64,000 nucleotides of DNA, taken from Lytechinus pictus. Its lineage: Eukaryota. Positions within the stretch are counted from its first letter, which is position 1, and every line of letters begins with the position of its first letter. Of this stretch, positions 3,808 through 55,602 are shown in pieces. Both the position numbers and the translations under genes were made by a program. The stretch is from the NCBI RefSeq assembly GCF_037042905.1, contig NC_087251.1, forward strand, positions 28,956,001-29,020,000, written 5' to 3'. The notes below the pieces were generated by a model, which worked only from the letters and a program-made list of their open reading frames with translations, did no database searches and was not told where the DNA came from.

Positions 3808-6800
3808 ATGGCAGACATCAGTATGTCAGCTCAGAGAAAACGAAGAGCTCAACGCATGGCAAATCGGCCTCGACGACTAGCCCAAGGACCAGTGTCGGAT
3901 CACGGTGATGAGATCCTTCAAGCCATTGAGTTAGTCAAAGCTAAGCAAGAAGCTGAAGCTTACCCTGGTGGTGATTTCCTTGAGGCGAAGGACCAGGAAA
4001 CCCACACTCCTGAAAAATCGACCTCTATCTTAAGGTAGGACTTTTTTAGGGGGGGGGTGTGTTACACCCACAAATGTAATAATCGCCCACAAATGTAATA
4101 ACGCCCATAAATGTAATAACACTTTACCCACAAATGTAATAACGCCCACAAATGTAATAACACTTTACCCACAAATGTAATAATTTCACCCACAAATGTA
4201 ATAATGCACTTTACCCACAAATGTAATAATTTTGGATCGCCCACAAATGTAATAATGACTTTACCCACAAATGTAATAAATTTGAAGGGATTTTTGGCGA
4301 ATCCGTTCTCAACTAAAATCCTATAGTAATGCGTTCATATACCCATGGACCTATTGTAATAGGTCCATGATATAGCACAAAAGGGCAGTCTTTTTTCCAG
4401 ACCCGGTTAATTCGAAAATTATTATAAAAGTCCAAAGTCTTTTATCCAGACCCAGTTGTTTCAAAAATTATAATTTAAGTCCAAAGTCTTTTTCCAGACC
4501 CAGTTGTTTCAACAATTATAATATAAGTCCAAAGTCTTTTTCCAGACCCAGTTGTTTCAAAAATTATAATATAAGTCCAAAGTCTTTTTTCCAGACCCGG
4601 TTGTTTAAAAAAAAATAATACAAGTCCAAAGTCTTTTTTCCAGACCTGGTTGTTTAAAAAATAATAATACAAGTCCAAAGTCTTTTCTCCAGACCTCGTT
4701 ATTTAAAAAATGATAATACAAGTCCAAAGTCTTTTTTCAAGACCCGGTTGTTTCCAAAATTATAATATAAGTCCAAAGTCTTTTTTCCAGACCCAGTTCT
4801 TTAAAAAATTATAATATAAGTCCAAAGTCTTTTTTCCAGACCCAGTTGTTTCAAAAATTACAATATAAGTCCAAAGTATTTTTTCCAGACCCGGTCGTTT
4901 TAATAATTATAATATAAGTCCAAACTAAGATACGATAATGATATTCCAGTAGAATGGAAATGAGATTCGAGCTTAGTCTTTTCTCCAGACCCAGTTAATT
5001 AAAACTGGTGGAATTAATGTGTTTGTTGTTGTGTTAACTTATACGGCACATATTGTGAATATATATGCTAAGAGTAAATTGAGAATCAAGCAAAGTCTTT
5101 TCTCCAGACCCGTTAACTAAAAACTAAAACCATATAGTAATGCGTTCATATAGCACAAAGTGCAAAGTTTTTTTTCCAGACCTGCTTAATTCAAAAATGA
5201 TAATATAAGTCAAAGTCTTTTTTCCAGACCCGGTTGTTAAAAAAATTATAATATAAGTCCAAACGAAGATACGATAATGATATTCCAGTGGAATAAAATG
5301 TTGTTGTTTTAGCTCATACGGCACGTATCATTCAGCGGTGAATATTTGCGCAAATAAAAATAAGAATCGAGCTAAGTCTTTTCTCCAGACCCAGTTAATT
5401 AAAACTGGTGGAATAAATGTCTTTGTTGTTGTTTTAACTTATACGGCACCTATTGTGAATATATGCGCTAAGAGTAAATTGAGAATCAAGCGTAGTCTTT
5501 TCTCCAGACCCGGTTACTAAAAACTAAAAACTAAAACCCTTTACCCCACAAATGCAATAATTTCACCCATGAATGTAATAATGCATTTTACCCACATATG
5601 TAATAATTTTGATCGCCCACAAATGTAATAATGACTTTATTCACAAATGTTATAAATTTGAAGAGATTTTTGGCGATTCTGTTCTAAACTAAAACCCTAT
5701 AGTAATGCATATAGCGCAAAGTCTCAGTCTTTTTTCTCCAGACCCGGTTATATAAAACATTTAAACAATCTTCCATATAAAGATCCCAAAATTAATTCTT
5801 CTTAATGTTGAATAACATAGAAGTTTAGCGTAGTCTTTCCTCCAAACCCAAATATTTCAAATAGCAAATAAAAAATAATAAATAATAATAAAAATAAAAA
5901 AAGACCCCACGATGTTATCAATGTTGAACAAGATGTAAATATAACAAATTCTTTCCTCCAGACACAGTTATAAAAAAAATCATTCAAAAATAAAACAACA
6001 ACAACCAAAAACAGACCCGCAATCTTTTCAACATTGAATAGCGTATGTGTGTGTGTATTTGAGTTTTGTCAGACGAGTATCAATCAGATATGATTATTCA
6101 TGTCTGGGACCAACCTTTAACGTCACCATCCGAAAGACGTGACCAAGGCTCGAACCTCGAACCTCTGCATCAATTTGTATCTTCCCCACATAGCTTGGAT
6201 TACTGGCGCATGCCACAACGCCTAGTTAGCATCGAAATATGGTGAAGTCTTTGTTCCAGCCGCGGTTATTTCAAAATAGCATATCATAAAGAACAATATT
6301 AACAAAGACCCAATTATCTCATTGATGCTGAATAACCTGAAAATATAGCGTAGTCTTTCTTCAAGACCCAGTTATTTTAAAATAACAAATCATAGAAAAG
6401 ATATATAATAATAATAAAACAAAGGCCCCACAGTCTTATTGATGTTGAATAACGGGGGGGGGGGTTCTTATTTTTATTTGGCAACCAGTCAAATTTGACT
6501 ATTTTTGCCATCATAAATATTATATTATTAACGTTTGTTTTCTTTGAAGAAATAAAAAATACATGAGTAAAGTAAAATTCAAATATTTATTTATTTTCCT
6601 TTCTTTTTTTCTTCTTTTCTATGTCCTTTTTTATAGGATACCTACTAGGATTTATAGTCGAGTAGGTGTGTCTCTCAATTTAAAATCAGGGCTTTTACTG
6701 AAAATATGTTATATGGACCTACTAAGTATGCAAGGAATACCTAGGATGGAGATGACAGAGAAAGAAATTAGGAAAATCACAGCTCCAATCCTAAACCCGT

Positions 6801-9800
6801 ACGTATGGGGATACGTCTGTCCCGTTGATGTGAACATCAACGTCAGTGAAGTCTCGACCTTTCCCGGAGACAAGACGCCTTTAAATCCTAACAAGGAAAT
6901 ATAGCGTAGTCTTTCCTCCAGACCCACTTATTTCAAAATTACATATAATTTTTTAAAGAGTCAACAAGAAACAAAGACCCCCACTATCTTATTAATGTAA
7001 AAAAATAACATGGAAATATAGTGTAGTCTTTCATCCAGACCCAGATCTTTCAAATAACAAATGATGAATAATGATAATAAATTAATAATAATTATTAAAA
7101 GAACAAAAACCCACGATCCTATTCATGTTGAATAACATGGAAATATAGCGTGGTCTTTTCTCCAGACCCAGTTATAAAAAACACAGCAACAACAAAACAA
7201 AGGCCCTGCAATCTTATCAACATTGAATAGCATGGAAATATGGTGTAGTCTTTGCTCCAGACCCAGTTATTTCAAAATAGGAAAATATAAGAAACAATAA
7301 AAACAAACAGTATCAGCAAAGACCCCACAATATCACTGATGTAGAATAACGTTGTTGTTGTTGTTGTTATCTTGGATTATAAGGCGCGTATCATATGAAT
7401 AGTTACGCCTATGATTAATTTGTTGTCTTTGTGGTATGTGTTATCACATGGTTTTTATAGTTTGAAGATGTTGGGGTCTAAGTTTTAAGATTAATGTTTC
7501 CCTTAATTTGTATTTTTAAGAGAACTGGGTGTGGGGTATAGACAACACTCAAAACCCAAGCATTTTAACTGGGTTTAATTTTGAAGATTGGTCTTAGCCT
7601 TGATTTTTTTAAAATATTTGTTTATCTTTTAAATAACCGGGTCTAGACGAAAGACTAAGCATAATACTCGTGTTATTCCACAGGAATAAGAATATGACAA
7701 AGTTTTATGTTTTTAAGATTGTTGACATTATTTTTTTAAATGACTGTGTTTGAAATAAAGACAACGATCTAAACATGTGCTTTTCTACATGGTCTCAATT
7801 TGGAGGATTGTTGGTTCTTAGATTCGTTGTTGGGGGTTGGGTTTATTGCTTTTTTATTCTTGAAATAACTGTGTCTGGAGGAAAGTCTACAATCGATCTT
7901 CGTGTTACCCACAGTAATTCGATTATTGGGTATTCGTTTTGGAATATTTGTAAAAACTATTTTATTTTTTTCAAATAATAACCAAGTCTGGAGAAAAGAT
8001 GTTTGATTTACCCATGCATTATTACAATGTTTTGTAGGGGTCTTAGTATTAAAAAAAAAAAAAAAACTGGGTGTGGGGTAAAGACATATTTTTTTATTGG
8101 GTGTAACTATTGAAGATTGGTCTTAGATTTGAAGTTTTTTTAAATTCATTTTTTAAATAACCGGGTCTAGTGGAAAGAGTACGTTTTAAAACTCGTGTTA
8201 TTCCACAAGAATGAGAATATGATAGGGTCTTACGTTAGAAATATTTTTTGGTGATTTTTTACTGATTAGGTCTGGAATAAAGACAACGCTCTTAACCTCT
8301 TTTTAAAACAGGTTCTTAGGTTCAGGGACCCTGGAACGGTTTTCAAAGTGGGGGGGGGGGGCTGAGCCAAAAGTTGGGGGGCTGACCATGCTAAACATCA
8401 CAATATTATGGTCATTTTTACGTTTTTGTACACGGTTTTGGAAAAAAGTGGGGGGGGGGGGGGCTGAAGCCCCCCCAGCCCCCCCCCCGGTTCCGCGGCC
8501 CCTGAGGTTGAAGGATTGCTTGGTCTTAGATTTTTAGTTTTTTATTATTACTATTTGCGTTATTTGGAAAAAAATAACTGGGTCTGGCTGAAAGACTACG
8601 CTTTATGTCCTTGTTATCCTGCATTAATAAGATAATGGGGTCTTTATACTGTTTTTGTTGTTGTATTGTTATTTATAATTTTGGAATAACAGGGTTTGGA
8701 GAAGAGACTAAGCTCGATTTTCATTTTTATTCCACTGGAATATCATTATGGTATCTTAGTTTGGACTTATATTTTATTTTTTTAAATAACCGGGTCTGGA
8801 AAAAAGACTTTGAACTTATATTATAATTTTTGAAACAACCGGGTCTGGAAAAAAGACTTTGGACTTATATTATAATTTTTGAAACAACCGGGTCTGGAAA
8901 AAAGGCCTTGGACTTATATATTTTTTTTAATCAACCGGGTCTGAAAAAAGACTTTGACTTATATTATGATTTTTGAATTAACCAGGTCTGAAAAAAAGAC
9001 TTTGCACTTTTGTGCTATATAAATGCATTACTATAGGGTTTTAGTTTTTAGTTTTAAGTAACCGGGTCTGGAGGAGACTACGCTTGGTTCTGAATTTACT
9101 CTTAGCGCATATATTCACAATACGCGCCATATAACTTGAAACAACAACAAAGACATTTAGTCCACCAGCTTTAATTAAGTGGGTCTGGAAAAAAGACTAA
9201 GCTTGATTCTCATTTTCATTCCACTGGAATATCATTATCGTATCTTAGTTTGGGTTTGGACTTATATTATGATTTTTGAAATAACCGGGTCTGGAAAAAA
9301 CTATGGACTTATATTATAATTTTTTAAACAATTGGGTCTGGAAAAAAGACTTTGGACTTATGTTATATTTTTTTAATAACCGGGTCTGGAAAAAAGACTG
9401 CACTTTTGTGCTAAATGAACGCATTACTACAGGGTTTTAGTTTTTAATTTTAAGTAACTGGGTCTGGAGAAAAGACTACGCTTGATTCTCAATTTACTCT
9501 TAGCGCATATATTCACAATACGCGCCGTATAAGTTAAAACAACAACAAGACATTAATTCCACAAGTTTTAATCACCTGGGTCTGGAGCAAAGACTAAGCT
9601 TGATTCTCATTTTTATTCCACTGGAATATCATTATCGTATCTTAGTTTGGACTTATATTATAATTTTCTAAATAACCGGGTCTGGAAAAAAAGACTTTGG
9701 AATTATATTATAATTTTTGAAATAACCTGGTCTGGAAAAAAAGACTTTGGACGTATTTCATATTTTTTTAACAACCGGGTCTGGAAAAAAGACTTTGGAC

Positions 9801-11825
9801 TTATATTATAATTTTCAAATTAAACGGGTCTGGAAAAAAGACTTTGCACTTTTGTGCTATATCATGGACCTATTACAATAGGTCCATGGCTATATAAACG
9901 CATTACCATAGGATCTTAGTTTAGAACGGATTCGCCAAAAATCCCACCAAATTTATTACATTTGTGGGTAAAGTCATTATTACATTTGTGGGCGATCCAA
10001 AATTATTACATTTGTGGGTAAAGTGCATTATTACATTTGTGGGTGAAAGTATTACATTTGTGGGTAAAGTGTTATTACATTTGTGGGCGTTATTACATTT
10101 GTGGGTAAAGTGTTATTACATTTGTTGGCGTTATTACATTTGTGGGCGTTATTACATTAGTGGGTGCAACAGGGTGTAGCTTCTAAAATTGCATTCACTT
10201 TGAATGTTGCCTATTTGACGAATCGATGTTTCATTGAAAAGTCAGTTACTAAATACTTTATAAAATCTCCACGGATATAGCTATTCACAGCCTTCATTCT
10301 GCGATATATAAGAGCTTAGTTTTCGGGGGTAATAACTATGCATAATGTATTTTGTTCTTACCTTGTAGTCACTGTGACAGCAAGCCGACAACGCAGATAC
10401 CTGTCCACGAGAACAAGAGTGTTGACGAAGAGGTCATCCAAATGCTGCAAACCAGCGTCACATGTCAAACTCTCAAACTCGATGACCTCTCGACCTTTGA
10501 CATGGAATGGACTGTAAAGGTAATGCCGATCAAAATCATCTTTAATACATGCACAATATCTCAAATATGACACTGATTTAGATCGGAAAGACAAGTTAAA
10601 ATAGATAATGATAATGTTGTATTAATTTTATTTTTACTTAAGATTTGAACCCTAAATGTAAACACAAAACATTGACACACACTTCAATCGATTAATACGA
10701 ATTACCCTTTCTATATAGTTGGATTGAAGGACATTTTTTCATTCATTTGGCAGAGCCTGGAAACGCTCGTGGAGATTGGGCGGGGCAGCTACGGTCGCGT
10801 CCTTCTAGCACGTCATCGTTCCACAGGCGTCCCTCTTGCGGTCAAAGAACCGTCTTGGTCAGACGATTTTGCCTCGCCCGGTGAAATGGTTGAGGAACTC
10901 AAGGCAACAAGGACCAGAGCTACAAAGGAGGCACTGATCCAACAGTTGTTGTCAGGAAGTCCCTACTTTCCAAAGTTATGGGGTACGCTAGACCTCGGAA
11001 ACGAACTCTGCCAGGCCGTCGAGTTCATCGGATGCAAGAAGACAGGCACTGGCTACCCTCTCCACGCACCACCACGTCTATCAGTCAGCAACGTTGTCAA
11101 GATCGCAGAGGATATCGTCAAGGGAATGAAGGAGTTCCATGATCACGGACTTCTCCATAATGACTTGAAGAATGATAACGTGCTGTTAGAAAAACGCGGC
11201 AAACGATACAACGCCGTCATCATCGATTTCGGCATGGCGAGCACAATGACGGCACCAGCAAAAATGGTTGGGGTCACCAAAGAACTGAAAATGGCATATG
11301 TGCACGGAGGGGAGGCGGACTACATAGCACCTGAGGTTGTCCTGGATGAACAGCCGACATCAGTTGCTTCAGACGTGTTTTCGATCGGCCGTATCTTTTC
11401 GGATATGGGAGAGATATTCGAAGGTAATTATCGAATCTTTATCACCATCTCATATATTGAATGGAAAACTCGCTGTTCACAAAATAATACATGTCTAAAA
11501 AAAAATCTGTTCATGAAATATTTAAACCGCAACCATTTTCTTGATTCTCCTTTTGATTTTCACCCATTCATTGAATATCATTTTGTTCAATGCATAATTA
11601 TCTCCGTTTCCTTTGCTTCTCTTTATGTTTCTCCTAACTTCAGATCTCCACTCTCCCGTGGTTCGAACACTGACCAAGATAGGATCTAAGTGCATGGCAA
11701 ATGATCCTGATCACCGCCCAAGCCTTGATACCATCCAAACTCAAATCGACAAACTCCAACGGCCAAGTAGATGGAGGCGTGTCAAGCGATGGTTCGCAAG
11801 AAAACTACATCTACGCAGAAAGTAG
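3808..11825 (+). CDS. Ser/Thr protein kinase, copy 1: join(3808..4034,10369..10519,10754..11423,11644..11825); intron 1 expanded by a foldback insertion
   Basis: Exons and GT-AG sites are intact as in the other copies. Intron 1 is 6334 bp rather than ~219 bp. Whether this copy is expressed is unknown. Confidence 0.75.
4066..4280 (+). repeat. Outer-arm minisatellite with CCCACAAATGTAATAA core (left arm)
   Basis: About 9 copies of the core with short variable linkers. The reverse complement lies at ~9953-10165. Confidence 0.92.
4387..4925 (+). repeat. Inner-arm ~53-bp tandem repeat (CCAGACCC.GTTGTTT..AAAATTATAATATAAGTCCAAAGTCTTTTT)
   Basis: About 10 consecutive copies, with degenerate derivatives continuing to ~7270. 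Reverse-complement copies (GGGTCTGG) occupy ~7520-9850. Confidence 0.9.
6043..6226 (-). mobile_element. ~184-bp SINE: 7SL/Alu-like head, Pol III A and B boxes, Deu-like core motif, (CA)n tail
   Basis: The minus strand reads ACTAGGCGTTGTGGCATGCGCCAGTAATCCAAGCTATGTGGGG...GGTTCGAGCC...CGTCTTTCGGATGGTGACGTTAAA...ACACACACACATAC. It is flanked by TAGC repeats (6039-6042, 6227-6230). The paralogous empty site at ~7220-7245 lacks it. Confidence 0.75.
6454..6888. other. ~435-bp insertion of unrelated sequence inside the foldback arm
   Basis: It interrupts the arm motif gttgaataac|atggaaatatagcg and has TAAC on both sides (6450-6453, 6889-6892). It begins with a G-run and has no evident TIR. Confidence 0.6.
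8323..8504 (-). mobile_element. MITE copy B (same family as 41-225, inverted), nested in the foldback
   Basis: Reverse-complement match to 41-225 with termini CAGGGACC...GGCCCCTG. AGGTT is duplicated on both sides. Confidence 0.85.
9953..10165 (-). repeat. Outer-arm minisatellite (right arm), TTATTACATTTGTGGG core
   Basis: Reverse complement of 4066-4280. The spurious ORFs 4062..4268(-) and 9964..10179(+) give nearly the same translation. Confidence 0.92.
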
Positions 11826-13531: not shown

Positions 13532-13860
13532 TACGCGCTCTCATTCGCTGAAAGTTTTGACCTAATATGACGACACAATGGTCAATAGGGTATGCAACAC
13601 TGATTCTTCTACGCTCATGTTGGGTACGCGTTTTCATTGGCTGAAAGTTTTAAGCTAATGACGAAACAATGGTTGACAAGGGCGCACTTTGAATGGTATC
13701 TTTGAGTAACAAACAGTGACGTTCCTTGTCTCAGTTTTGATTTAGCTCTCGGAGTGCAACTATTGCTTCTTCCTCGCTTTCGAAACTTTTCTTCAATTGA
13801 ATTACCCAATTCAATCGATTCGTTCTCAAGTAAATTGGCCATTTCTGACCAGGTAATCGA
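13532..13860 (+). promoter_or_regulatory. Putative promoter / 5' non-coding exon region of the kinase unit (shown for copy 2)
   Basis: Locally CpG-rich, with two diverged direct repeats (ACGCG...CATT.GCTGAAAGTTTT...TGACGA.ACAATGGT), a reverse CCAAT (ATTGG) and TGACG half-sites. A candidate donor CAG|GTAATC lies at 13852/13853, with candidate acceptors at 14152 or 14211. No transcript evidence. Confidence 0.35.
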
Positions 13861-14222
13861 ATTGCAACGGATCGCTCCTGAAAACTATCAAATCTTATTA
13901 GATTGAGTTAAATTAATTCTTTTTACACAATAGTTTAACACCTATTCAACATGTTTTAACAAGTTATTTGCAAGAAATCCAAAATATCTAGTCAATTTAC
14001 ACAAGACGTAAAGATTGACGGGAAATTAATTATATTGAGGGAGAAGGAGAGAGTGAAAGAAAGAAAAAAAAGTCAAGTGATTTTCTAGTCATGTTGCTTG
14101 AAATCGAATCTAAGAATACATATGTCGACTTACTGAACCTAACTTGTTTCAGAGCATCGCATGATTATGTCACAAATGATTTTACGTATCATTATCCAAT
14201 AACTATCTCAGAAACTTTGAAA

Positions 14223-16125
14223 ATGGCAGACATCAGTATGTCAGCTCAGAGAAAACGAAGAGCTCAACGCATGGCAAATCGGCCTCGACGACTAGCCCAA
14301 GGACCAGTGTCGGATCACGGTGATGAGATCCTTCAAGCCATTGAGTTAGTCAAAGCTAAGCAAGAAGCTGAAGCTTACCCTGGTGGTGATTTCCTTGAGG
14401 CGAAGGACCAGGAAACCCACACTCCTGAAAAATCGACCTCTATCTTAAGGTAGGACTTTTTTAGGGGGGGGGGGTGTAGCTTCTAAAATTGCATTCACTT
14501 TGAATGTTGCCTATTTGACGAATCGATGTTTCATTGAAATGTCAGTTACTAAATACTTTATAAAATCTCCACGGATATAGCTATTCACAGCCTTCATTCT
14601 GCGATATATAAGAGCTTAGTTTTCGGGGGTAATAACTATGCATAATGTATTTTGTTCTTACCTTGTAGCCACTGTGACAGCAAGCCGACAACGCAGATAC
14701 CTGTCCACGAGAACAAGAGTGTTGACGAAGAGGTCATCCAAATGCTGCAAACCAGCGTCACATGTCAAACTCTCAAACTCGATGACCTCTCGACCTTTGA
14801 CATGGAATGGACTGTAAAGGTAATGCCGATCAAAATCATCTTTAATACATGCACAATATCTCAAATATGACACTGATTTAGATCGGAAAGACAAGTTAAA
14901 ATAGATAATGATAATGTTGTATTAATTTTATTTTTACTTAAGATTTGAACCCTAAATGTAAACACAAAACATTGACACACACTTCAATCGATTAATACGA
15001 ATTACCCTTTCTATATAGTTGGATTGAAGGACATTTTTTCATTCATTTGGCAGAGCCTGGAAACGCTCGTGGAGATTGGGCGGGGCAGCTACGGTCGCGT
15101 CCTTCTAGCACGTCATCGTTCCACAGGCGTCCCTCTTGCGGTCAAAGAACCGTCTTGGTCAGACGATTTTGCCTCGCCCGGTGAAATGGTTGAGGAACTC
15201 AAGGCAACAAGGACCAGAGCTACAAAGGAGGCACTGATCCAACAGTTGTTGTCAGGAAGTCCCTACTTTCCAAAGTTATGGGGTACGCTAGACCTCGGAA
15301 ACGAACTCTGCCAGGCCGTCGAGTTCATCGGATGCAAGAAGACAGGCACTGGCTACCCTCTCCACGCACCACCACGTCTATCAGTCAGCAACGTTGTCAA
15401 GATCGCAGAGGATATCGTCAAGGGAATGAAGGAGTTCCATGATCACGGACTTCTCCATAATGACTTGAAGAATGATAACGTGCTGTTAGAAAAACGCGGC
15501 AAACGATACAACGCCGTCATCATCGATTTCGGCATGGCGAGCACAATGACGGCACCAGCAAAAATGGTTGGGGTCACCAAAGAACTGAAAATGGCATATG
15601 TGCACGGAGGGGAGGCGGACTACATAGCACCTGAGGTTGTCCTGGATGAACAGCCGACATCAGTTGCTTCAGACGTGTTTTCGATCGGCCGTATCTTTTC
15701 GGATATGGGAGAGATATTCGAAGGTAATTATCGAATCTTTATCACCATCTCATATATTGAATGGAAAACTCGCTGTTCACAAAATAATACATGTCTAAAA
15801 AAAAATCTGTTCATGAAATATTTAAACCGCAACCATTTTCTTGATTCTCCTTTTGATTTTCACCCATTCATTGAATATCATTTTGTTCAATGCATAATTA
15901 TCTCCGTTTCCTTTGCTTCTCTTTATGTTTCTCCTAACTTCAGATCTCCACTCTCCCGTGGTTCGAACACTGACCAAGATAGGATCTAAGTGCATGGCAA
16001 ATGATCCTGATCACCGCCCAAGCCTTGATACCATCCAAACTCAAATCGACAAACTCCAACGGCCAAGTAGATGGAGGCGTGTCAAGCGATGGTTCGCAAG
16101 AAAACTACATCTACGCAGAAAGTAG
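14223..16125 (+). CDS. Ser/Thr protein kinase (non-RD), copy 2: join(14223..14449,14669..14819,15054..15723,15944..16125), 409 aa
   Basis: GT-AG introns of 219, 234 and 220 bp with matching phases 2/0/1 give a spliced length of 1230 nt. Motifs GRGSYG, AVK, alphaC E (TKEA), HNDLKNDN, DFG, YIAPE and DVFSIG are present, and subdomain XI (DPDHRPS) comes from exon 4. The start codon is inferred. Confidence 0.9.
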
Positions 16126-16159
16126 TCCCACTATAACTCATATTTTGGCACCATCTGAT

Positions 16160-16165
16160 AATAAA
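16160..16165 (+). terminator. Polyadenylation signal AATAAA (shown for copy 2; present in every unit)
   Basis: AATAAA lies ~35 nt after the TAG stop and is followed by T/GT-rich sequence. Confidence 0.55.
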
Positions 16166-18202: not shown

Positions 18203-20104
18203 ATGGCAGACATCAGTATGTCAGCTCAGAGAAAACGAAGAGCTCAACGCATGGCAAATCGGCCTCGACGACTAGCCCAAGGACCAGTGTCGGATCACGG
18301 TGATGAGATCCTTCAAGCCATTGAGTTAGTCAAAGCTAAGCAAGAAGCTGAAGCTTACCCTGGTGGTGATTTCCTTGAGGCGAAGGACCAGGAAACCCAC
18401 ACTCCTGAAAAATCGACCTCTATCTTAAGGTAGGACTTTTTTAGGGGGGGGGGTGTAGCTTCTAAAATTGCATTCACTTTGAATGTTGCCTATTTGACGA
18501 ATCGATGTTTCATTGAAATGTCAGTTACTAAATACTTTATAAAATCTCCACGGATATAGCTATTCACAGCCTTCATTCTGCGATATATAAGAGCTTAGTT
18601 TTCGGGGGTAATAACTATGCATAATGTATTTTGTTCTTACCTTGTAGCCACTGTGACAGCAAGCCGACAACGCAGATACCTGTCCACGAGAACAAGAGTG
18701 TTGACGAAGAGGTCATCCAAATGCTGCAAACCAGCGTCACATGTCAAACTCTCAAACTCGATGACCTCTCGACCTTTGACATGGAATGGACTGTAAAGGT
18801 AATGCCGATCAAAATCATCTTTAATACATGCACAATATCTCAAATATGACACTGATTTAGATCGGAAAGACAAGTTAAAATAGATAATGATAATGTTGTA
18901 TTAATTTTATTTTTACTTAAGATTTGAACCCTAAATGTAAACACAAAACATTGACACACACTTCAATCGATTAATACGAATTACCCTTTCTATATAGTTG
19001 GATTGAAGGACATTTTTTCATTCATTTGGCAGAGCCTGGAAACGCTCGTGGAGATTGGGCGGGGCAGCTACGGTCGCGTCCTTCTAGCACGTCATCGTTC
19101 CACAGGCGTCCCTCTTGCGGTCAAAGAACCGTCTTGGTCAGACGATTTTGCCTCGCCCGGTGAAATGGTTGAGGAACTCAAGGCAACAAGGACCAGAGCT
19201 ACAAAGGAGGTACTGATCCAACAGTTGTTGTCAGGAAGTCCCTACTTTCCAAAGTTATGGGGTACGCTAGACCTCGGAAACGAACTCTGCCAGGCCGTCG
19301 AGTTCATCGGATGCAAGAAGACAGGCACTGGCTACCCTCTCCACGCACCACCACGTCTATCAGTCAGCAACGTTGTCAAGATCGCAGAGGATATCGTCAA
19401 GGGAATGAAGGAGTTCCATGATCACGGACTTCTCCATAATGACTTGAAGAATGATAACGTGCTGTTAGAAAAACGCGGCAAACGATACAACGCCGTCATC
19501 ATCGATTTCGGCATGGCGAGCACAATGACGGCACCAGCAAAAATGGTTGGGGTCACCAAAGAACTGAAAATGGCATATGTGCACGGAGGGGAGGCGGACT
19601 ACATAGCACCTGAGGTTGTCCTGGATGAACAGCCGACATCAGTTGCTTCAGACGTGTTTTCGATCGGCCGTATCTTTTCGGATATGGGAGAGATATTCGA
19701 AGGTAATTATCGAATCTTTATCACCATCTCATATATTGAATGGAAAACTCGCTGTTCACAAAATAATACATGTCTAAAAAAAAATCTGTTCATGAAATAT
19801 TTAAACCGCAACCATTTTCTTGATTCTCCTTTTGATTTTCACCCATTCATTGAATATCATTTTGTTCAATGCATAATTATCTCCGTTTCCTTTGCTTCTC
19901 TTTATGTTTCTCCTAACTTCAGATCTCCACTCTCCCGTGGTTCGAACACTGACCAAGATAGGATCTAAGTGCATGGCAAATGATCCTGATCACCGCCCAA
20001 GCCTTGATACCATCCAAACTCAAATCGACAAACTCCAACGGCCAAGTAGATGGAGGCGTGTCAAGCGATGGTTCGCAAGAAAACTACATCTACGCAGAAA
20101 GTAG
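18203..20104 (+). CDS. Kinase copy 3: join(18203..18429,18648..18798,19033..19702,19923..20104); Ala>Val after the alphaC Glu
   Basis: Same structure as copy 2. GCA>GTA at 19211 changes KEAL to KEVL. Preceded by the 331-bp deletion. Confidence 0.88.
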
Positions 20105-43007: not shown

Positions 43008-44909
43008 ATGGCAGACATCAGTATGTCAGCTCAGAGAAAACGAAGAGCTCAACGCATGGCAAATCGGCCTCGACGACTAGCCCAAGGACCAGTGTCGGAT
43101 CACGGTGATGAGATCCTTCAAGCCATTGAGTTAGTCAAAGCTAAGCAAGAAGCTGAAGCTTACCCTGGTGGTGATTTCCTTGAGGCGAAGGACCAGGAAA
43201 CCCACACTCCTGAAAAATCGACCTCTATCTTAAGGTAGGACTTTTTTAGGGGGGGGGGTGTAGCTTCTAAAATTGCATTCACTTTGAATGTTGCCTATTT
43301 GACGAATCGATGTTTCATTGAAATGTCAGTTACTAAATACTTTATAAAATCTCCACGGATATAGCTATTCACAGCCTTCATTCTGCGATATATAAGAGCT
43401 TAGTTTTCGGGGGTAATAACTATGCATAATGTATTTTGTTCTTACCTTGTAGCCACTGTGACAGCAAGCCGACAACGCAGATACCTGTCCACGAGAACAA
43501 GAGTGTTGACGAAGAGGTCATCCAAATGCTGCAAACCAGCGTCACATGTCAAACTCTCAAACTCGATGACCTCTCGACCTTTGACATGGAATGGACTGTA
43601 AAGGTAATGCCGATCAAAATCATCTTTAATACATGCACAATATCTCAAATATGACACTGATTTAGATCGGAAAGACAAGTTAAAATAGATAATGATAATG
43701 TTGTATTAATTTTATTTTTACTTAAGATTTGAACCCTAAATGTAAACACAAAACATTGACACACACTTCAATCGATTAATACGAATTACCCTTTCTATAT
43801 AGTTGGATTGAAGGACATTTTTTCATTCATTTGGCAGAGCCTGGAAACGCTCGTGGAGATTGGGCGGGGCAGCTACGGTCGCGTCCTTCTAGCACGTCAT
43901 CGTTCCACAGGCGTCCCTCTTGCGGTCAAAGAACCGTCTTGGTCAGACGATTTTGCCTCGCCCGGTGAAATGGTTGAGGAACTCAAGGCAACAAGGACCA
44001 GAGCTACAAAGGAGGCACTGATCCAACAGTTGTTGTCAGGAAGTCCCTACTTTCCAAAGTTATGGGGTACGCTAGACCTCGGAAACGAACTCTGCCAGGC
44101 CGTCGAGTTCATCGGATGCAAGAAGACAGGCACTGGCTACCCTCTCCACGCACCACCACGTCTATCAGTCAGCAACGTTGTCAAGATCGCAGAGGATATC
44201 GTCAAGGGAATGAAGGAGTTCCATGATCACGGACTTCTCCATAATGACTTGAAGAATGATAACGTGCTGTTAGAAAAACGCGGCAAACGATACAACGCCG
44301 TCATCATCGATTTCGGCATGGCGAGCACAATGACGGCACCAGCAAAAATGGTTGGGGTCACCAAAGAACTGAAAATGGCATATGTGCACGGAGGGGAGGC
44401 GGACTACATAGCACCTGAGGTTGTCCTGGATGAACAGCCGACATCAGTTGCTTCAGACGTGTTTTCGATCGGCCGTATCTTTTCGGATATGGGAGAGATA
44501 TTCGAAGGTAATTATCGAATCTTTATCACCATCTCATATATTGAATGGAAAACTCGCTGTTCACAAAATAATACATGTCTAAAAAAAAATCTGTTCATGA
44601 AATATTTAAACCGCAACCATTTTCTTGATTCTCCTTTTGATTTTCACCCATTCATTGAATATCATTTTGTTCAATGCATAATTATCTCCGTTTCCTTTGC
44701 TTCTCTTTATGTTTCTCCTAACTTCAGATCTCCACTCTCCCGTGGTTCGAACACTGACCAAGATAGGATCTAAGTGCATGGCAAATGATCCTGATCACCG
44801 CCCAAGCCTTGATACCATCCAAACTCAAATCGACAAACTCCAACGGCCAAGTAGATGGAGGCGTGTCAAGCGATGGTTCGCAAGAAAACTACATCTACGC
44901 AGAAAGTAG
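43008..44909 (+). CDS. Kinase copy 9: join(43008..43234,43453..43603,43838..44507,44728..44909)
   Basis: Same exons and translation as copy 2, with the full upstream region. Confidence 0.9.
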
Positions 44910-47307: not shown

Positions 47308-49209
47308 ATGGCAGACATCAGTATGTCAGCTCAGAGAAAACGAAGAGCTCAACGCATGGCAAATCGGCCTCGACGACTAGCCCAAGGACCAGTGTCGGAT
47401 CACGGTGATGAGATCCTTCAAGCCATTGAGTTAGTCAAAGCTAAGCAAGAAGCTGAAGCTTACCCTGGTGGTGATTTCCTTGAGGCGAAGGACCAGGAAA
47501 CCCACACTCCTGAAAAATCGACCTCTATCTTAAGGTAGGACTTTTTTAGGGGGGGGGGTGTAGCTTCTAAAATTGCATTCACTTTGAATGTTGCCTATTT
47601 GACGAATCGATGTTTCATTGAAATGTCAGTTACTAAATACTTTATAAAATCTCCACGGATATAGCTATTCACAGCCTTCATTCTGCGATATATAAGAGCT
47701 TAGTTTTCGGGGGTAATAACTATGCATAATGTATTTTGTTCTTACCTTGTAGCCACTGTGACAGCAAGCCGACAACGCAGATACCTGTCCACGAGAACAA
47801 GAGTGTTGACGAAGAGGTCATCCAAATGCTGCAAACCAGCGTCACATGTCAAACTCTCAAACTCGATGACCTCTCGACCTTTGACATGGAATGGACTGTA
47901 AAGGTAATGCCGATCAAAATCATCTTTAATACATGCACAATATCTCAAATATGACACTGATTTAGATCGGAAAGACAAGTTAAAATAGATAATGATAATG
48001 TTGTATTAATTTTATTTTTACTTAAGATTTGAACCCTAAATGTAAACACAAAACATTGACACACACTTCAATCGATTAATACGAATTACCCTTTCTATAT
48101 AGTTGGATTGAAGGACATTTTTTCATTCATTTGGCAGAGCCTGGAAACGCTCGTGGAGATTGGGCGGGGCAGCTACGGTCGCGTCCTTCTAGCACGTCAT
48201 CGTTCCACAGGCGTCCCTCTTGCGGTCAAAGAACCGTCTTGGTCAGACGATTTTGCCTCGCCCGGTGAAATGGTTGAGGAACTCAAGGCAACAAGGACCA
48301 GAGCTACAAAGGAGGCACTGATCCAACAGTTGTTGTCAGGAAGTCCCTACTTTCCAAAGTTATGGGGTACGCTAGACCTCGGAAACGAACTCTGCCAGGC
48401 CGTCGAGTTCATCGGATGCAAGAAGACAGGCACTGGCTACCCTCTCCACGCACCACCACGTCTATCAGTCAGCAACGTTGTCAAGATCGCAGAGGATATC
48501 GTCAAGGGAATGAAGGAGTTCCATGATCACGGACTTCTCCATAATGACTTGAAGAATGATAACGTGCTGTTAGAAAAACGCGGCAAACGATACAACGCCG
48601 TCATCATCGATTTCGGCATGGCGAGCACAATGACGGCACCAGCAAAAATGGTTGGGGTCACCAAAGAACTGAAAATGGCATATGTGCACGGAGGGGAGGC
48701 GGACTACATAGCACCTGAGGTTGTCCTGGATGAACAGCCGACATCAGTTGCTTCAGACGTGTTTTCGATCGGCCGTATCTTTTCGGATATGGGAGAGATA
48801 TTCGAAGGTAATTATCGAATCTTTATCACCATCTCATATATTGAATGGAAAACTCGCTGTTCACAAAATAATACATGTCTAAAAAAAAATCTGTTCATGA
48901 AATATTTAAACCGCAACCATTTTCTTGATTCTCCTTTTGATTTTCACCCATTCATTGAATATCATTTTGTTCAATGCATAATTATCTCCGTTTCCTTTGC
49001 TTCTCTTTATGTTTCTCCTAACTTCAGATCTCCACTCTCCCGTGGTTCGAACACTGACCAAGATAGGATCTAAGTGCATGGCAAATGATCCTGATCACCG
49101 CCCAAGCCTTGATACCATCCAAACTCAAATCGACAAACTCCAACGGCCAAGTAGATGGAGGCGTGTCAAGCGATGGTTCGCAAGAAAACTACATCTACGC
49201 AGAAAGTAG
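47308..49209 (+). CDS. Kinase copy 10: join(47308..47534,47753..47903,48138..48807,49028..49209)
   Basis: Same exons and translation as copy 2, with the full upstream region. Confidence 0.9.
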
Positions 49210-51607: not shown

Positions 51608-53509
51608 ATGGCAGACATCAGTATGTCAGCTCAGAGAAAACGAAGAGCTCAACGCATGGCAAATCGGCCTCGACGACTAGCCCAAGGACCAGTGTCGGAT
51701 CACGGTGATGAGATCCTTCAAGCCATTGAGTTAGTCAAAGCTAAGCAAGAAGCTGAAGCTTACCCTGGTGGTGATTTCCTTGAGGCGAAGGACCAGGAAA
51801 CCCACACTCCTGAAAAATCGACCTCTATCTTAAGGTAGGACTTTTTTAGGGGGGGGGGTGTAGCTTCTAAAATTGCATTCACTTTGAATGTTGCCTATTT
51901 GACGAATCGATGTTTCATTGAAATGTCAGTTACTAAATACTTTATAAAATCTCCACGGATATAGCTATTCACAGCCTTCATTCTGCGATATATAAGAGCT
52001 TAGTTTTCGGGGGTAATAACTATGCATAATGTATTTTGTTCTTACCTTGTAGCCACTGTGACAGCAAGCCGACAACGCAGATACCTGTCCACGAGAACAA
52101 GAGTGTTGACGAAGAGGTCATCCAAATGCTGCAAACCAGCGTCACATGTCAAACTCTCAAACTCGATGACCTCTCGACCTTTGACATGGAATGGACTGTA
52201 AAGGTAATGCCGATCAAAATCATCTTTAATACATGCACAATATCTCAAATATGACACTGATTTAGATCGGAAAGACAAGTTAAAATAGATAATGATAATG
52301 TTGTATTAATTTTATTTTTACTTAAGATTTGAACCCTAAATGTAAACACAAAACATTGACACACACTTCAATCGATTAATACGAATTACCCTTTCTATAT
52401 AGTTGGATTGAAGGACATTTTTTCATTCATTTGGCAGAGCCTGGAAACGCTCGTGGAGATTGGGCGGGGCAGCTACGGTCGCGTCCTTCTAGCACGTCAT
52501 CGTTCCACAGGCGTCCCTCTTGCGGTCAAAGAACCGTCTTGGTCAGACGATTTTGCCTCGCCCGGTGAAATGGTTGAGGAACTCAAGGCAACAAGGACCA
52601 GAGCTACAAAGGAGGCACTGATCCAACAGTTGTTGTCAGGAAGTCCCTACTTTCCAAAGTTATGGGGTACGCTAGACCTCGGAAACGAACTCTGCCAGGC
52701 CGTCGAGTTCATCGGATGCAAGAAGACAGGCACTGGCTACCCTCTCCACGCACCACCACGTCTATCAGTCAGCAACGTTGTCAAGATCGCAGAGGATATC
52801 GTCAAGGGAATGAAGGAGTTCCATGATCACGGACTTCTCCATAATGACTTGAAGAATGATAACGTGCTGTTAGAAAAACGCGGCAAACGATACAACGCCG
52901 TCATCATCGATTTCGGCATGGCGAGCACAATGACGGCACCAGCAAAAATGGTTGGGGTCACCAAAGAACTGAAAATGGCATATGTGCACGGAGGGGAGGC
53001 GGACTACATAGCACCTGAGGTTGTCCTGGATGAACAGCCGACATCAGTTGCTTCAGACGTGTTTTCGATCGGCCGTATCTTTTCGGATATGGGAGAGATA
53101 TTCGAAGGTAATTATCGAATCTTTATCACCATCTCATATATTGAATGGAAAACTCGCTGTTCACAAAATAATACATGTCTAAAAAAAAATCTGTTCATGA
53201 AATATTTAAACCGCAACCATTTTCTTGATTCTCCTTTTGATTTTCACCCATTCATTGAATATCATTTTGTTCAATGCATAATTATCTCCGTTTCCTTTGC
53301 TTCTCTTTATGTTTCTCCTAACTTCAGATCTCCACTCTCCCGTGGTTCGAACACTGACCAAGATAGGATCTAAGTGCATGGCAAATGATCCTGATCACCG
53401 CCCAAGCCTTGATACCATCCAAACTCAAATCGACAAACTCCAACGGCCAAGTAGATGGAGGCGTGTCAAGCGATGGTTCGCAAGAAAACTACATCTACGC
53501 AGAAAGTAG
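51608..53509 (+). CDS. Kinase copy 11: join(51608..51834,52053..52203,52438..53107,53328..53509)
   Basis: Same exons and translation as copy 2. This is the last complete copy before the satellite. Confidence 0.9.
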
Positions 53510-55534
53510 TCCCACTATAACTCATATTTTGGCACCATCTGATAATAAAATCACCATGAAAACATTCATTGTTCCTCATTGTTTTCTTTCGCTCACATTC
53601 TAGAAGAAAATGTTATCAAAGTTAAGATTTTCCATCTTCAAGATGTTTCTCTGGATAACCCTATCCACTTCATGAGATTTTATTCCATGTTGAGGTTTAC
53701 TGGTATTATTTTCAACTAGAAAACAAAATGTGCTCCAAATAAATAATAAGAACAGCAGCAGATGTAATGATGGCGACGACGATTGTGAGGAAAAGGGGGA
53801 GTAAATCATAATATCAATGATATTAAGAATAATGACAAAATGATAAGGAGGATGTCTATTATTCTCACAAATATCACTCAAAACAATAGTAGAGATAGTG
53901 AGAAGAGGGAGAGAGATAAAAAGAGACATCGAGGGAAAGTGGGTGCACATTTTTGCGGAAGTCAGAGTAGAATAAAAGATAGAAAGAGAGAGGGAGGGGC
54001 TAGGGTTGTGGTGGCTATGTTTGAAGATACATAATAAAAACGTGACCTTGAGAGGGAGACATTTAAGTTTCAAAGCGGTATCGTTATGGTGTCACGCGCG
54101 TAAAACATTCCCCATAGACTTGTGTGTTAAAATGACACTTTTGAAAAATTCATAAAAAATAAACGTGAAATTAGAGGGCCGAATGTTTACTACCATTGGA
54201 TAGGATATATATCTGACCAGAGAAGGGTATCGTAGCCGGCTCATTTTAAAAATAAATCGCCATTTATGAAGATAACTATGATGGGATCAAATTTATCGAC
54301 TGTAACAGTAAAATAGCCCTAATTCGTCCGCCAGTCAAAAAAATAGTTCCAAAGTCATTTTATATCTTCCCGATTTGGGCAAGGGAAGTTCAGTTGTTAC
54401 CATTTTTAGAATCAGTGTTAGATTTTCAATCATATTCATACACTTTTGTCAATCAGCAATATCTAATTGAAAAAAAATTCGAATGGGTTGGGTCGAATGA
54501 ATATCTTTAGCCCTCCTGTTGTAATTAGGCTCATGGAACCTTTATATACCCTGCTCTGTCTGCTATCAGCGGTAGATTCCCAACACTCCCCTAATAATTT
54601 GTACCTTAAGCCTTAATAAAATTTTCATTACAAACCATCATTGCATTATTCAAGATAATCATGAATTGTTATTCCCTCTCCTTAAGTCTACCCACTCTGA
54701 GACCTATAATTATCCTTCACTGAATGTCTCAACATCGATATTCAAGCAGAAAGATCACTCCCTAGCAATTTCTCATCCGGCGCTGACAAGATTGATATCC
54801 AAATTCTCCTATGAAGCTTGTTTTGAAAAAATACTAGAATCACATTTTACTTCCTACATACAAAAAAATACTAACGAGCAAAATGTGTTTTAAAGGTTAT
54901 TCAACAAAAACATATAAATCATCAGAAAGTTACAGAAACTAGAATCTTACCCCGCCCCCCCCCCCCCCCATCACGTATTTTCATCTGTCGCTTGTCATTC
55001 TTTCTCCCTCTCCCTCAAACGTGAAATAGGCATAATTACAATGATCAAATGAAAAACACAGGAACATAACATCTGATTCGGACAAATAAAGCTCATAAAA
55101 GTGCAAGTAAGGAAAAACATGCGAATCGACACTCTTGTGTTTTCGAATCGCCAGAAAATTTTGGTTTTGTACGCTGATTCTCCGGCGCGCACAATATATT
55201 GGGAAATGTGCCGTTTGATACGCGCTCTCATTCGCTGAAAGTTTTGACCTAATATGACGACACAATGGTCAATAGGGTATGCAACACTGATTCTTCTACG
55301 CTCATGTTGGGTACGCGTTTTCATTGGCTGAAAGTTTTAAGCTAATGACGAAACAATGGTTGACAAGGGCGCACTTTGAATGGTATCTTTGAGTAACAAA
55401 CAGTGACGTTCCTTGTCTCAGTTTTGATTTAGCTCTCGGAGTGCAACTATTGCTTCTTCCTCGCTTTCGAAACTTTTCTTCAATTGAATTACCCAATTCA
55501 ATCGATTCGTTCTCAAAAAAAATTGGCCATTTCT

Positions 55535-55602
55535 GACCTATAATTATCCTTCACTGAATGTCTCAACATCGATATTCAAGCAGAAAGATCACTCCCTAGC
55601 AA
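55535..55602 (+). other. 68-bp templated insertion at the array/satellite junction
   Basis: Exact copy of a unit segment (54701-54768 in the nearest unit, GACCTATAATTATCC...CCCTAGCAA), joined through shared GACC. Confidence 0.9.

Follow-up and report, generated by a model that had tools for sequence, protein, structure and literature searches.

A recently homogenised macrosatellite-type array of eleven kinase genes bordering satellite DNA in Lytechinus pictus

The window analysed here, a stretch of 64,000 nucleotides from the sea urchin Lytechinus pictus, contains a head-to-tail array of kinase genes, which was identified by self-BLAST of one unit and extends from position 1959 to 55538, with all copies on the + strand and units of 4.0 or 4.3 kb. 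With 11 genes, each lying whole in a unit of 3966-4303 bp, the array is a macrosatellite in the sense of a whole gene per head-to-tail unit of at least 1 kb at high identity; the number of copies is derived from one assembly only. A sequence-only reading had described 11 intact, intron-containing copies with one amino-acid difference at 3808-55538. The description was borne out by self-BLAST, reading frames and splice sites, and the span given corresponds precisely to the stretch between the first ATG and the end of the array; however, the array proper starts further left, near 1959, its first spacer being diverged. Neither Rfam matches at the gathering score nor tRNAs were identified in the whole window. 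The following features were assigned:

583-980, + strand: relic of an older unit, of which 583-761 is a piece of the 331-bp segment (94%)
1959-3807, + strand: left-edge spacer of unit 1, diverged and without the 460-bp repeat
3808-11825, + strand: kinase gene copy 1 (exons 3808-4034, 10369-10519, 10754-11423, 11644-11825)
4063-10171, no strand assigned: non-autonomous foldback-type transposon of 6.1 kb in intron 1 of copy 1
13603-13932, + strand: 331-bp spacer segment, present in long units and absent from short units
3189, 25851, 38087, 42388, 46688, 50988: further copies of the 331-bp segment, with a partial copy at 55290-55538
14223-16125, + strand: kinase gene copy 2 (ATG to stop, four exons, 409 amino acids)
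18203-20104, + strand: kinase gene copy 3 (A186V from one C/T difference in exon 3)
22170-24071, + strand: kinase gene copy 4, the reference model (exons 22170-22396, 22615-22765, 23000-23669, 23890-24071)
24647-25106, + strand: 460-bp high-copy interspersed repeat, TA-flanked, one of 11 copies
12401, 16711, 20680, 28948, 32916, 36882, 41185, 45485, 49785, 54085: starts of the other 460-bp repeats
26471-28372, + strand: kinase gene copy 5
30439-32340, + strand: kinase gene copy 6
34405-36306, + strand: kinase gene copy 7
38707-40609, + strand: kinase gene copy 8
43008-44909, + strand: kinase gene copy 9
47308-49209, + strand: kinase gene copy 10
51608-53509, + strand: kinase gene copy 11
55535-55602, + strand: 68-bp junction patch with the same sequence as unit position 21296-21363
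55601-64000, + strand: 186-bp satellite (dimer 371 bp; further periodicity 2815 bp)

The gene model consists of four exons encoding 409 amino acids, and all 11 copies read 409 codons without an internal stop, with GT-AG borders at 33 of 33 introns. For exon 1, self-BLAST revealed 11 matches, all at 100%, and the same was found for exon 2, where one match is aligned from base 2 with its first base and AG acceptor present. Exon 3 gave 11 matches, ten at 100% and one with a single mismatch, while the 12 matches of exon 4 comprise 11 at 100% and a relic at 760-888 (92%, 3 gaps). The sole difference among the 11 proteins is the A186V exchange in copy 3. In copy 4, an AATAAA signal is located at 24106. 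The exons of copy 1 are intact, and its intron 1 has a length of 6334 nt because of the transposon inserted at 4063-10171. This element has inverted arms at 4084-4396 and 9836-10148 (313 nt, 95%) and, further in, tandem sub-repeats of 49 and 41 bp in inverted orientation; no open reading frame in it exceeds 118 amino acids, and at its junctions the sequence GGGTGT is duplicated.

Ten full units were aligned, four of 3966-3979 bp and six of 4300-4303 bp, the gap in size being one 331-bp segment, which is lacking before copies 3, 4, 6 and 7. The alignment of 4314 columns contains six substitution columns and four indel loci. The mean pairwise divergence is 0.049%, with a maximum of 4 differences over 45 pairs, so that introns and spacers are homogenised too, as had been proposed. 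Polishing of long-read assemblies may exaggerate the likeness of repeat copies. Along the array, long (L) and short (S) units follow the pattern L L S S L S S L L L L; all short units share an A at alignment column 1387, units 6 and 7 share a T at column 1812, and a 10-bp insert is present in one unit. The 460-bp repeat occurs once in each of the 11 internal spacers (units 2-12), and of the 12 spacers only the left-edge one lacks it (empty site at 2345-2545). It is also absent in a sister species, whose genomic contig joins 24646 to 25107. Divergence of the left-edge spacer amounts to 16/484 sites at its left and drops to about 0.2% rightwards. In the older-unit relic, 760-980 corresponds to the 3' part of exon 4 and its flank at 90-92%, with gaps.

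The last array position on the right is 55538, and the 186-bp satellite, which starts at 55601 and fills the remainder of the window, is present in 44.8 copies with 93% matches. This satellite extends about 21 kb past the window, forming a block of about 30 kb altogether, beyond which a related satellite of 178 bp occupies 72 kb or more, confirming that the array abuts satellite DNA. Both joints of the junction patch were formed via 4-5 bp of shared letters. A subtelomeric position had also been considered, as an alternative to a pericentromeric one; however, the locus is found mid-chromosome, at 29.0 Mb on a contig of 49.7 Mb, and therefore is not subtelomeric.

In Pfam, exon 3 alone matched Pkinase (PF00069) with 94.7 bits compared to a cut-off of 31.7 (E 8.1e-27), and the record P0001 matched it with 91.9 bits, only kinase models being matched. 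The catalytic set is complete, comprising the glycine loop, the VAIK Lys, the helix-C Glu, the catalytic Asp/Asn, the DFG Asp, the APE Glu and the Arg of subdomain XI. In an alignment of 19 family members, K157, E185, N262, D263, N268, D284, E320, D333 and R374 are invariant, and the glycine loop residues G135, G137 and G140 are invariant or nearly so. HND replaces HRD, with N262-D263 in 19 of 19 members, which characterises the protein as a non-RD kinase. The stretch from D333 to R374 is short. In the AF2 model (pLDDT 82.7), residues 91-409 are ordered and residues 1-90 are predicted to be disordered; its bilobal kinase fold is matched by at least 500 PDB kinase chains at E <= 0.001. The exon 1 and exon 2 products gave no Pfam match at E <= 1, and an accessory domain is absent from the protein. 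Immune domains such as death, TIR or CARD were identified neither in the protein nor in 34 wider relatives. Across the four exon products and these relatives, Pfam returned kinase-type models only, apart from some long proteins that are obviously fused or unrelated and weak matches of the coiled-coil type.

Among solved structures, the best profile matches were JAK, RIPK1 (1.6e-22), IRAK4 (3e-22) and BRAF, and the scores of JAK, RIPK1, BRAF and PKC theta differ by no more than about 14 bits. The best fold matches were IRAK4 and LIMK1, with E values of about 7e-15 and TM scores of 0.62-0.69 depending on the target; identity to TKL kinases in the fold alignments is 16-22%. A single-sequence search of the PDB ranked CDPK, PKC, MST and CDK first, and only generic kinase clusters were returned from the ESM Atlas. 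By profile and predicted fold, the kinase thus appears nearest to IRAK4, RIPK1 and LIMK, a weakly held assignment in which the placement in the TKL group is loose. Like IRAK4, RIPK1 and LIMK1/TESK, it has a Ser/Thr-type catalytic loop; unlike these, it is without a death, RHIM, LIM or PDZ domain and carries HND instead of HRD. The N-terminal death domain of the IRAK/Pelle family was not found, as this region gave no Pfam match and residues 1-90 are predicted to be disordered. Nor were the features of the LIMK/TESK family, the source of an automatic name, recovered, since LIM or PDZ matches are absent and identity to LIMK1 in the fold alignment is 21-22%.

All named relatives found in protein searches are from echinoderms. 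Their database names are automatic only and contradict each other, in line with the earlier remark that the protein belongs to no named family. The only product identical to that of the array in these searches was a partial model of 239 amino acids, and no record of 409 amino acids was returned. In Lytechinus variegatus, relatives of 409 amino acids with 95-96% identity are named 'dual specificity testis-specific protein kinase 2-like' (XP_041467706 and 08-12), and six accessions are located on one contig. Strongylocentrotus purpuratus contains relatives of 414 amino acids with ~80% identity under several automatic names, in a cluster of 24 members. Compared as proteins, the genes of both species are orthologous members of the same family, with similar length and several near-identical copies per genome; however, the S. 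purpuratus copies are more diverged (92-98% alike) and are spread over contigs of three different lengths. Relatives in two other urchin genera were already annotated as multi-copy, which speaks in part against the novelty of the amplification. 'Testis-specific' was rejected as a functional clue, being an automatic name at low identity, and so was a lead to the Smok kinases, since the label 'sperm motility kinase X-like' was assigned automatically to a crinoid protein of 27% identity. A full-text literature search, which did not cover the sea urchin kinome of Bradham et al. 2006, revealed no publication on the family or the array, nor is the family referred to where PMC10855541 deals with the kinome.

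Reads were used to follow the unit in further samples. The word depth of the unit was about 4.5-5.2 in run X1 and 150-377 in runs X2 and X6, values which have no single-copy control and do not represent copy number. In X17, a run from a relative which is guessed to be RNA, zero depth was found in all three intron bins while the exons were covered, and a contig joins 23667 to 23888, a skip of 220 nt corresponding to intron 3. Splicing and expression of the gene in this relative are thus probable. Of the small-share runs X12-X20, X17 alone was used, and the runs listed included no RNA run from L. pictus itself. The exonic pieces of X17 differ at 35/1035 sites (3.4%), compared to 92/1287 and 78/1329 sites in genomic contigs from that organism; from these comparisons, the exons appear to be under more sequence constraint than the unit as a whole.

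Throughout the array, every one of the 11 copies carries the derived residues A60, E122 and L201. At these positions, T60, G122 and F201 are present in another record named L. pictus and in all three full-length L. variegatus proteins, and F201 is retained in Strongylocentrotus and Diadema as well. Run X1, which carries the same species label, has the F codon at 23224 and differs from the unit at 11/2183 sites (0.5%). The units are therefore far closer to each other (0.049%) than to X1, the pattern of concerted evolution. Clustering by species is also seen for the proteins, with 99.3-99.8% identity among the L. variegatus copies compared to 95% between the two Lytechinus species. Since the 460-bp insertion, present in 11 of 12 spacers, is absent at the edge and in the sister species, and since derived residues are fixed in 11 of 11 copies, the suggested recent amplification or concerted evolution is upheld. 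Judged from the sequences, one ancestral unit type spread after speciation, and the array was homogenised very recently.

The locus is best described as a recently homogenised, macrosatellite-type tandem array that probably provides an 11-fold dose of one kinase of an echinoderm family, predicted to be active and of the non-RD type. The dose is considered most likely because every unit is equipped with an upstream spacer, four exons separated by three short introns, and a polyadenylation signal of its own. Very recently, a single unit type was probably spread across the whole array by unequal exchange or gene conversion, with the homogenisation fading towards the left edge, and the right edge was probably joined to the satellite block by a rearrangement patched by microhomology. 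The product would be a soluble Ser/Thr kinase with Lys157 for ATP binding and Asp263 as catalytic residue, the activity of which may be independent of the RD-type switch in the activation loop. Targeting or regulation is the probable function of two basic elements, a conserved motif at the N-terminus (about residues 1-57) and an amphipathic helix at the C-terminus (390-408). As a best guess, the kinase would serve signalling in bulk, either in gametes or the early embryo or in innate immunity.

The gene may instead have been caught in a segment duplicating through instability on the satellite side, its extra copies being tolerated rather than needed. The 30-kb satellite block directly adjoining the array with the 178-bp satellite beyond it, the microhomology patchwork at the joint and the transposon already residing in copy 1 are all consistent with such a neutral by-product. 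However, open frames and splice sites are kept in all 11 copies, although units this young would be expected to be intact even without selection; in addition, relatives are multi-copy in two other genera, and the exons are better conserved than the whole unit. A neutral origin is regarded as unlikely. Very improbable is an expansion of one or two real copies by mis-assembly, for which the near-identity of the units and the uncalibrated read depth could be quoted: the order of long and short units and the shared letters at columns 1387 and 1812 are structured, single units are marked by the transposon or the 10-bp insert, the edge is diverged, and several copies are also present in independent assemblies of two other species.

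Repeated array-wide sweeps could also be driven by selection on an arms-race or selfish locus acting in immune signalling, gamete competition or drive. The derived L201 is fixed array-wide but in one haplotype only, and the exon-2 linker changes fast, with 9/51 residues differing between the two Lytechinus species compared to 5/223 in exon 3. This genome contains at least 33 matches to the kinase exon, the family is restricted to its lineage, and IRAK4 and RIPK1 are among the nearest solved kinases, together with a non-RD catalytic loop. However, the immune domains mentioned above are absent from the protein and its 34 wider relatives, and the linker is predicted to be disordered in the AF2 model and may just be unconstrained; this explanation is judged distinctly improbable. 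In a related reading, which is likewise improbable, variants of the L201 type would sweep through the units of one haplotype of a fast-cycling conflict locus, so that L. pictus haplotypes would represent functionally distinct, uniform 11-fold kinase 'alleles' with a part in competition between gametes or embryos or in the signalling of innate immunity. If this were true, variant sweeps would take a small fraction of the age of the species, in an unstudied non-RD family so far seen in echinoderms only.

Arrays of this type are not new in kind. The human D4Z4/DUX4 and RS447/USP17 arrays consist of head-to-tail units on the kb scale, each with a complete gene, at very high identity and beside other repeats. 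DUX4 and USP17 are intronless, and their arrays have been characterised by copy-number polymorphism and chromatin state. The array described here resembles them in its near-identical, gene-bearing kb-scale units and adjoining repeats, but its gene is interrupted by three introns and comes with a spacer of its own, and the array is not subtelomeric. The early histone repeats of sea urchins are tandem units of a few kb which undergo concerted evolution and serve bulk production, with five intronless genes per unit in hundreds of copies. In common with these, the array is an echinoid tandem of few-kb units kept uniform; however, it contains 11 copies of one spliced kinase gene. The Smok kinases of the mouse t haplotype are also a multi-copy kinase gene family, but the PDB matches do not single out their lineage, and no likeness past the kinase fold was seen.

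L. pictus is under development as a genetic sea-urchin model. As a recently homogenised source of what is probably an 11-fold dose of one kinase, the compact, marker-rich array offers a tractable case for timing the homogenisation of a coding tandem array within a species. Its history is marked by the gradient at the edge, one repeat insertion common to the units, the two unit lengths and fixed residues specific to a haplotype. Moreover, the array points to an unstudied kinase family, which is so far found in echinoderms only.

When one unit was compared with the window by BLAST, a head-to-tail series of matches with 99.7-100% identity was identified, spanning roughly 10.2-55.3 kb, in addition to a split first unit. 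In unit 4, which serves as the reference, the gene model built from the sequence codes for 409 amino acids in four exons; the three introns between them measure 218, 234 and 220 nt and have GT-AG borders.

Exons of the kinase gene in copy 4 (window positions)
22170-22396, exon 1
22615-22765, exon 2
23000-23669, exon 3
23890-24071, exon 4

Searches of the window returned 11 matches for each exon. For exons 1 and 2, all 11 were identical to the query; for exon 3, ten were at 100% and one carried a single mismatch; for exon 4, the 11 matches at 100% were accompanied by a gapped 92% relic at 760-888. Copy-by-copy rebuilding gave 409 codons without an internal stop for 11 of 11 genes and GT-AG borders for 33 of 33 introns, the sole protein difference being A186V in copy 3. 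The ten full units comprise four short ones of 3966-3979 bp and six long ones of 4300-4303 bp, which differ by a 331-bp spacer segment. Aligned over 4314 columns, they show six substitution columns and four indel loci, with at most four differences in every one of the 45 pairs and a mean pairwise divergence of 0.049%, an identity that assembly polishing may have inflated. The sequence-only reading had described 11 intact, near-identical kinase genes with a 409-aa product, one visible amino acid difference, and introns and spacers homogenised as well; each of these points was confirmed, the copy count of 11 being taken from one assembly. A 45-bp unit present in three perfect copies at 431-565 recurs in diverged form where the 331-bp spacer segment begins.

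The array ends at 55538, and its true start lies near 1959, with a diverged spacer. This start had been overlooked, as had the length of intron 1 in copy 1, which is 6334 nt and contains a large insertion.

4063-10171, foldback-type transposon in intron 1 of copy 1, 6.1 kb

The element has 313-nt inverted ends (95%), inner inverted arrays of 49- and 41-bp sub-repeats, and a duplicated GGGTGT at its junctions. Within its 6.1 kb, no open reading frame longer than 118 aa was found. It is a non-autonomous foldback-type transposon, which we take to resemble the TU elements of sea urchins.

That one unit type spread recently, as proposed earlier under recent amplification or concerted evolution, is shown by four lines of evidence. 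A TA-flanked 460-bp repeat, which the genome holds in very many copies, is present in 11 of 11 spacers of units 2-12. The unit-1 spacer contains an empty site for it (2345-2545) that matches the joined flanks with 94% identity, and in a genomic contig of organism B, a close relative with about 93% identity, 24646 is joined directly to 25107, without the repeat. From these empty sites it follows that the 11 copies stem from one insertion, multiplied after the species had separated. The second line is the edge of the array. At the left end of unit 1, 16 of 484 sites depart from the consensus, and over its gene 3 of 1613 do so; a homogenised array is expected to show such a gradient at its edge. 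Beyond unit 1 on the left, a relic of an older unit with 90-94% identity was identified.

The third line concerns residues A60, E122 and L201, which are present in 11 of 11 copies. The other L. pictus record of full length has T60, G122 and F201, as do three of three full-length L. variegatus proteins, and F201 is also retained in Strongylocentrotus and Diadema. Run X1, reads carrying the window's own organism label, differs from the window at 11 of 2183 bases (about 99.5% identity); at 23224 it has the F codon, and at 22702 the letter of the relative. The derived states are thus present in every window copy and missing from other members of the species. This divergence of 0.5% between individuals is about ten times the 0.049% between units. 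As the fourth line, copies cluster by species in sequence comparisons: identity is 99.3-99.8% within L. variegatus and 92-98% within S. purpuratus, and between species it is 95% for the two Lytechinus and 80% to Strongylocentrotus.

The copy of the 460-bp repeat at 24647-25106, like the ten others, one per spacer, is without obvious inverted ends. Its summed word depth reaches about 5e5 in runs of a related species, which places it among the most abundant repeats of these genomes.

At its right end the array adjoins a higher-order satellite, as had been noted before. The joint is a patchwork: the unit breaks within the 331-bp segment, and a 68-bp piece (55535-55602), identical to unit position 21296-21363, precedes the satellite. 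Both joins of this piece show 4-5 shared letters, and its source lies about 770 bp upstream in the unit. This suggests that the joint was made by template switching or end joining. The satellite has a 186-bp unit, with a 371-bp dimer scored as well; it begins at 55601, fills the rest of the window and continues to C7:29,041,238, about 29.6 kb in total. Its self-match peaks at 2815 bp, with an ungapped identity of 0.685 versus 0.36-0.55 at most other multiples; this higher-order signal (about 15 monomers) is stronger than that of the dimer.

The window (C7:28,956,001-29,020,000) is located on a 49.7-Mb contig of an 812-Mb assembly, so that the locus, about 29.0 Mb into the contig, is mid-chromosome and a subtelomeric position, which had been considered, does not hold. 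About 10 kb of other sequence separates the 186-bp block from a related 178/357-bp satellite, which starts at C7:29,051,372, is still present at 29,124,000 and is gone by 29,220,001. The 178-bp satellite covers at least 72 kb (357-bp dimer, 96-97% matches), shares a core with the 186-bp satellite and is directly preceded by an 18-bp tandem repeat of 39 copies with 83% matches. With 40 of 975 candidates scored, further 186-bp blocks were identified at 32.9, 36.7, 37.8 and 38.8-38.95 Mb on C7 and at 7.4-7.5 Mb on C16. On the other side, 8-20 kb upstream of the window start (C7:28.94-28.95 Mb), open reading frames match F-box (E 8.5e-10) and, weakly, LRR domains; these frames probably belong to a single F-box/LRR gene, and no ordinary gene was seen closer to the array. 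No Rfam families or tRNAs were found within the 64-kb window.

Exon 3 alone matches Pfam Pkinase with an E-value of 8.1e-27, and the products of exons 1 and 2 match no Pfam family at E <= 1. Of 913 candidates in a word-indexed protein search, 28 proteins reached E <= 0.001, and all ten named ones are from echinoderms (Lytechinus, Strongylocentrotus, Diadema, Antedon).

Closest relatives of the spliced product
XP_063957533.1, L. pictus, 239 aa, 100% over residues 171-409
XP_054759286.1, L. pictus, 407 aa, 97.8%
XP_041467708.1, L. variegatus, 409 aa, 95.6%, ungapped
several records, S. purpuratus, 414 aa, about 79-80%

The gene model is supported by the ungapped full-length relative. An exhaustive search gave 37,828 kinases at E <= 0.001 and only 17 cluster representatives at E <= 1e-30, so that the family is small and isolated. 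In the window's genome, exon-3 DNA occurs 11 times, always inside the window, with two additional matches at 66-71% on C2 and C5; its protein matches 33 places at E <= 1e-20, the 11 array copies and 22 paralogues of 33-56% identity distributed over eight contigs, some in small clusters. For both L. variegatus and S. purpuratus, existing annotation already gives several copies of these relatives, with automatic names that disagree. A full-text literature search, outside which the 2006 kinome paper lay, returned no paper on the family. The sole returned protein identical to the array product is the 239-aa model, which starts at an internal Met. Since no 409-aa L. pictus product was among the proteins returned, the 11 genes look under-annotated, perhaps due to repeat masking of the array.

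In an alignment of 19 family members, K157, E185, N262, D263, N268, D284, G286, E320, D333, R374 and the glycine loop are invariant or nearly so, and because these catalytic residues are kept, the kinase is predicted to be active. All 19 members have HND, with Asn for Arg before the catalytic Asp, and it is therefore a non-RD kinase. A profile built from this alignment was scored against solved structures.

Profile matches among solved structures
a JAK chain, E 3.7e-25
RIPK1, E 1.6e-22
IRAK4, E 3e-22
BRAF, E about 2e-21
PKC theta, E 5.7e-21

With a single sequence, CDPK, PKC, MST and CDK were on top at about 1e-9. The AlphaFold2 model (mean pLDDT 82.7, pTM 0.74) consists of a mostly disordered stretch (residues 1-90), the kinase (91-389) and a helix (390-408), and its top PDB fold matches are IRAK4 and LIMK1 (E about 7e-15, TM 0.62-0.69 by target, 16-22% identity). 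We read the kinase as probably loosely TKL-like and outside every named family. At first reading the protein had likewise been assigned to none. Neither the protein nor 34 wider relatives showed a death, LIM or other accessory domain. Conservation between Lytechinus and Strongylocentrotus, shared in part by Diadema, covers the first ~57 residues and the basic C-terminal tail; the exon-2 linker shows none.

The runs listed for organism A, the window's own, include none of RNA, which counts neither for nor against expression. Expression was followed in run X17 of organism B, which is guessed, not stated, to be RNA. Its exon bins are covered, with zero depth in intron bins 22417-22547, 22810-22940 and 23727-23857; in the DNA runs X2 and X6, most of these three bins are covered. 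A contig of X17 joins 23667 to 23888, a 220-nt skip that corresponds to intron 3 when the shared AG is allowed for, and coverage stops in the bin containing AATAAA at 24106. Spliced transcripts, on which the sequence-only reading had made its proposal depend, thus occur in the relative's probable RNA. In its exonic pieces, X17 departs from the window at 35 of 1035 sites, and genomic contigs of organism B do so at 92 of 1287 and 78 of 1329. Between the Lytechinus species, 5 of 223 residues differ in exon 3 versus 9 of 51 in the exon-2 linker, from which we infer that the kinase domain is probably under purifying selection, with the linker free or fast-changing.

Taken as a whole, the locus is probably a real tandem array, homogenised very recently, whose kinase gene is intact, expressed and active, the splicing being taken from the relative and the activity from the kept catalytic residues. 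Unequal exchange or conversion would have carried one unit type over the array. The long (L) and short (S) units follow the order L L S S L S S L L L L. At alignment column 1387 an A is common to the short units (3, 4, 6, 7), and at column 1812 a T is common to units 6 and 7. This suggests block duplications and disfavours a simple expansion in assembly, and an assembly artefact is highly improbable.

A neutral by-product of instability on the side of the satellite, which the array meets at its patchwork joint, is unlikely. A locus of conflict or immunity in which sweeps were selected, a reading that overlaps with the homogenised array, is in itself very unlikely; haplotype-specific, selection-driven turnover of a conflict kinase is distinctly doubtful.

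In form, the recently homogenised array belongs with the gene-bearing macrosatellites, or tandemly arrayed gene clusters, that undergo concerted evolution. D4Z4/DUX4, RS447/USP17 and the urchin histone repeats are of similar form; the array differs from them in that its gene is a spliced kinase. The N-terminal motif and C-terminal basic helix of this kinase may serve as targeting or regulatory modules, its activity would be independent of an RD-type switch, and the array may function in providing an 11-fold dose of the kinase.
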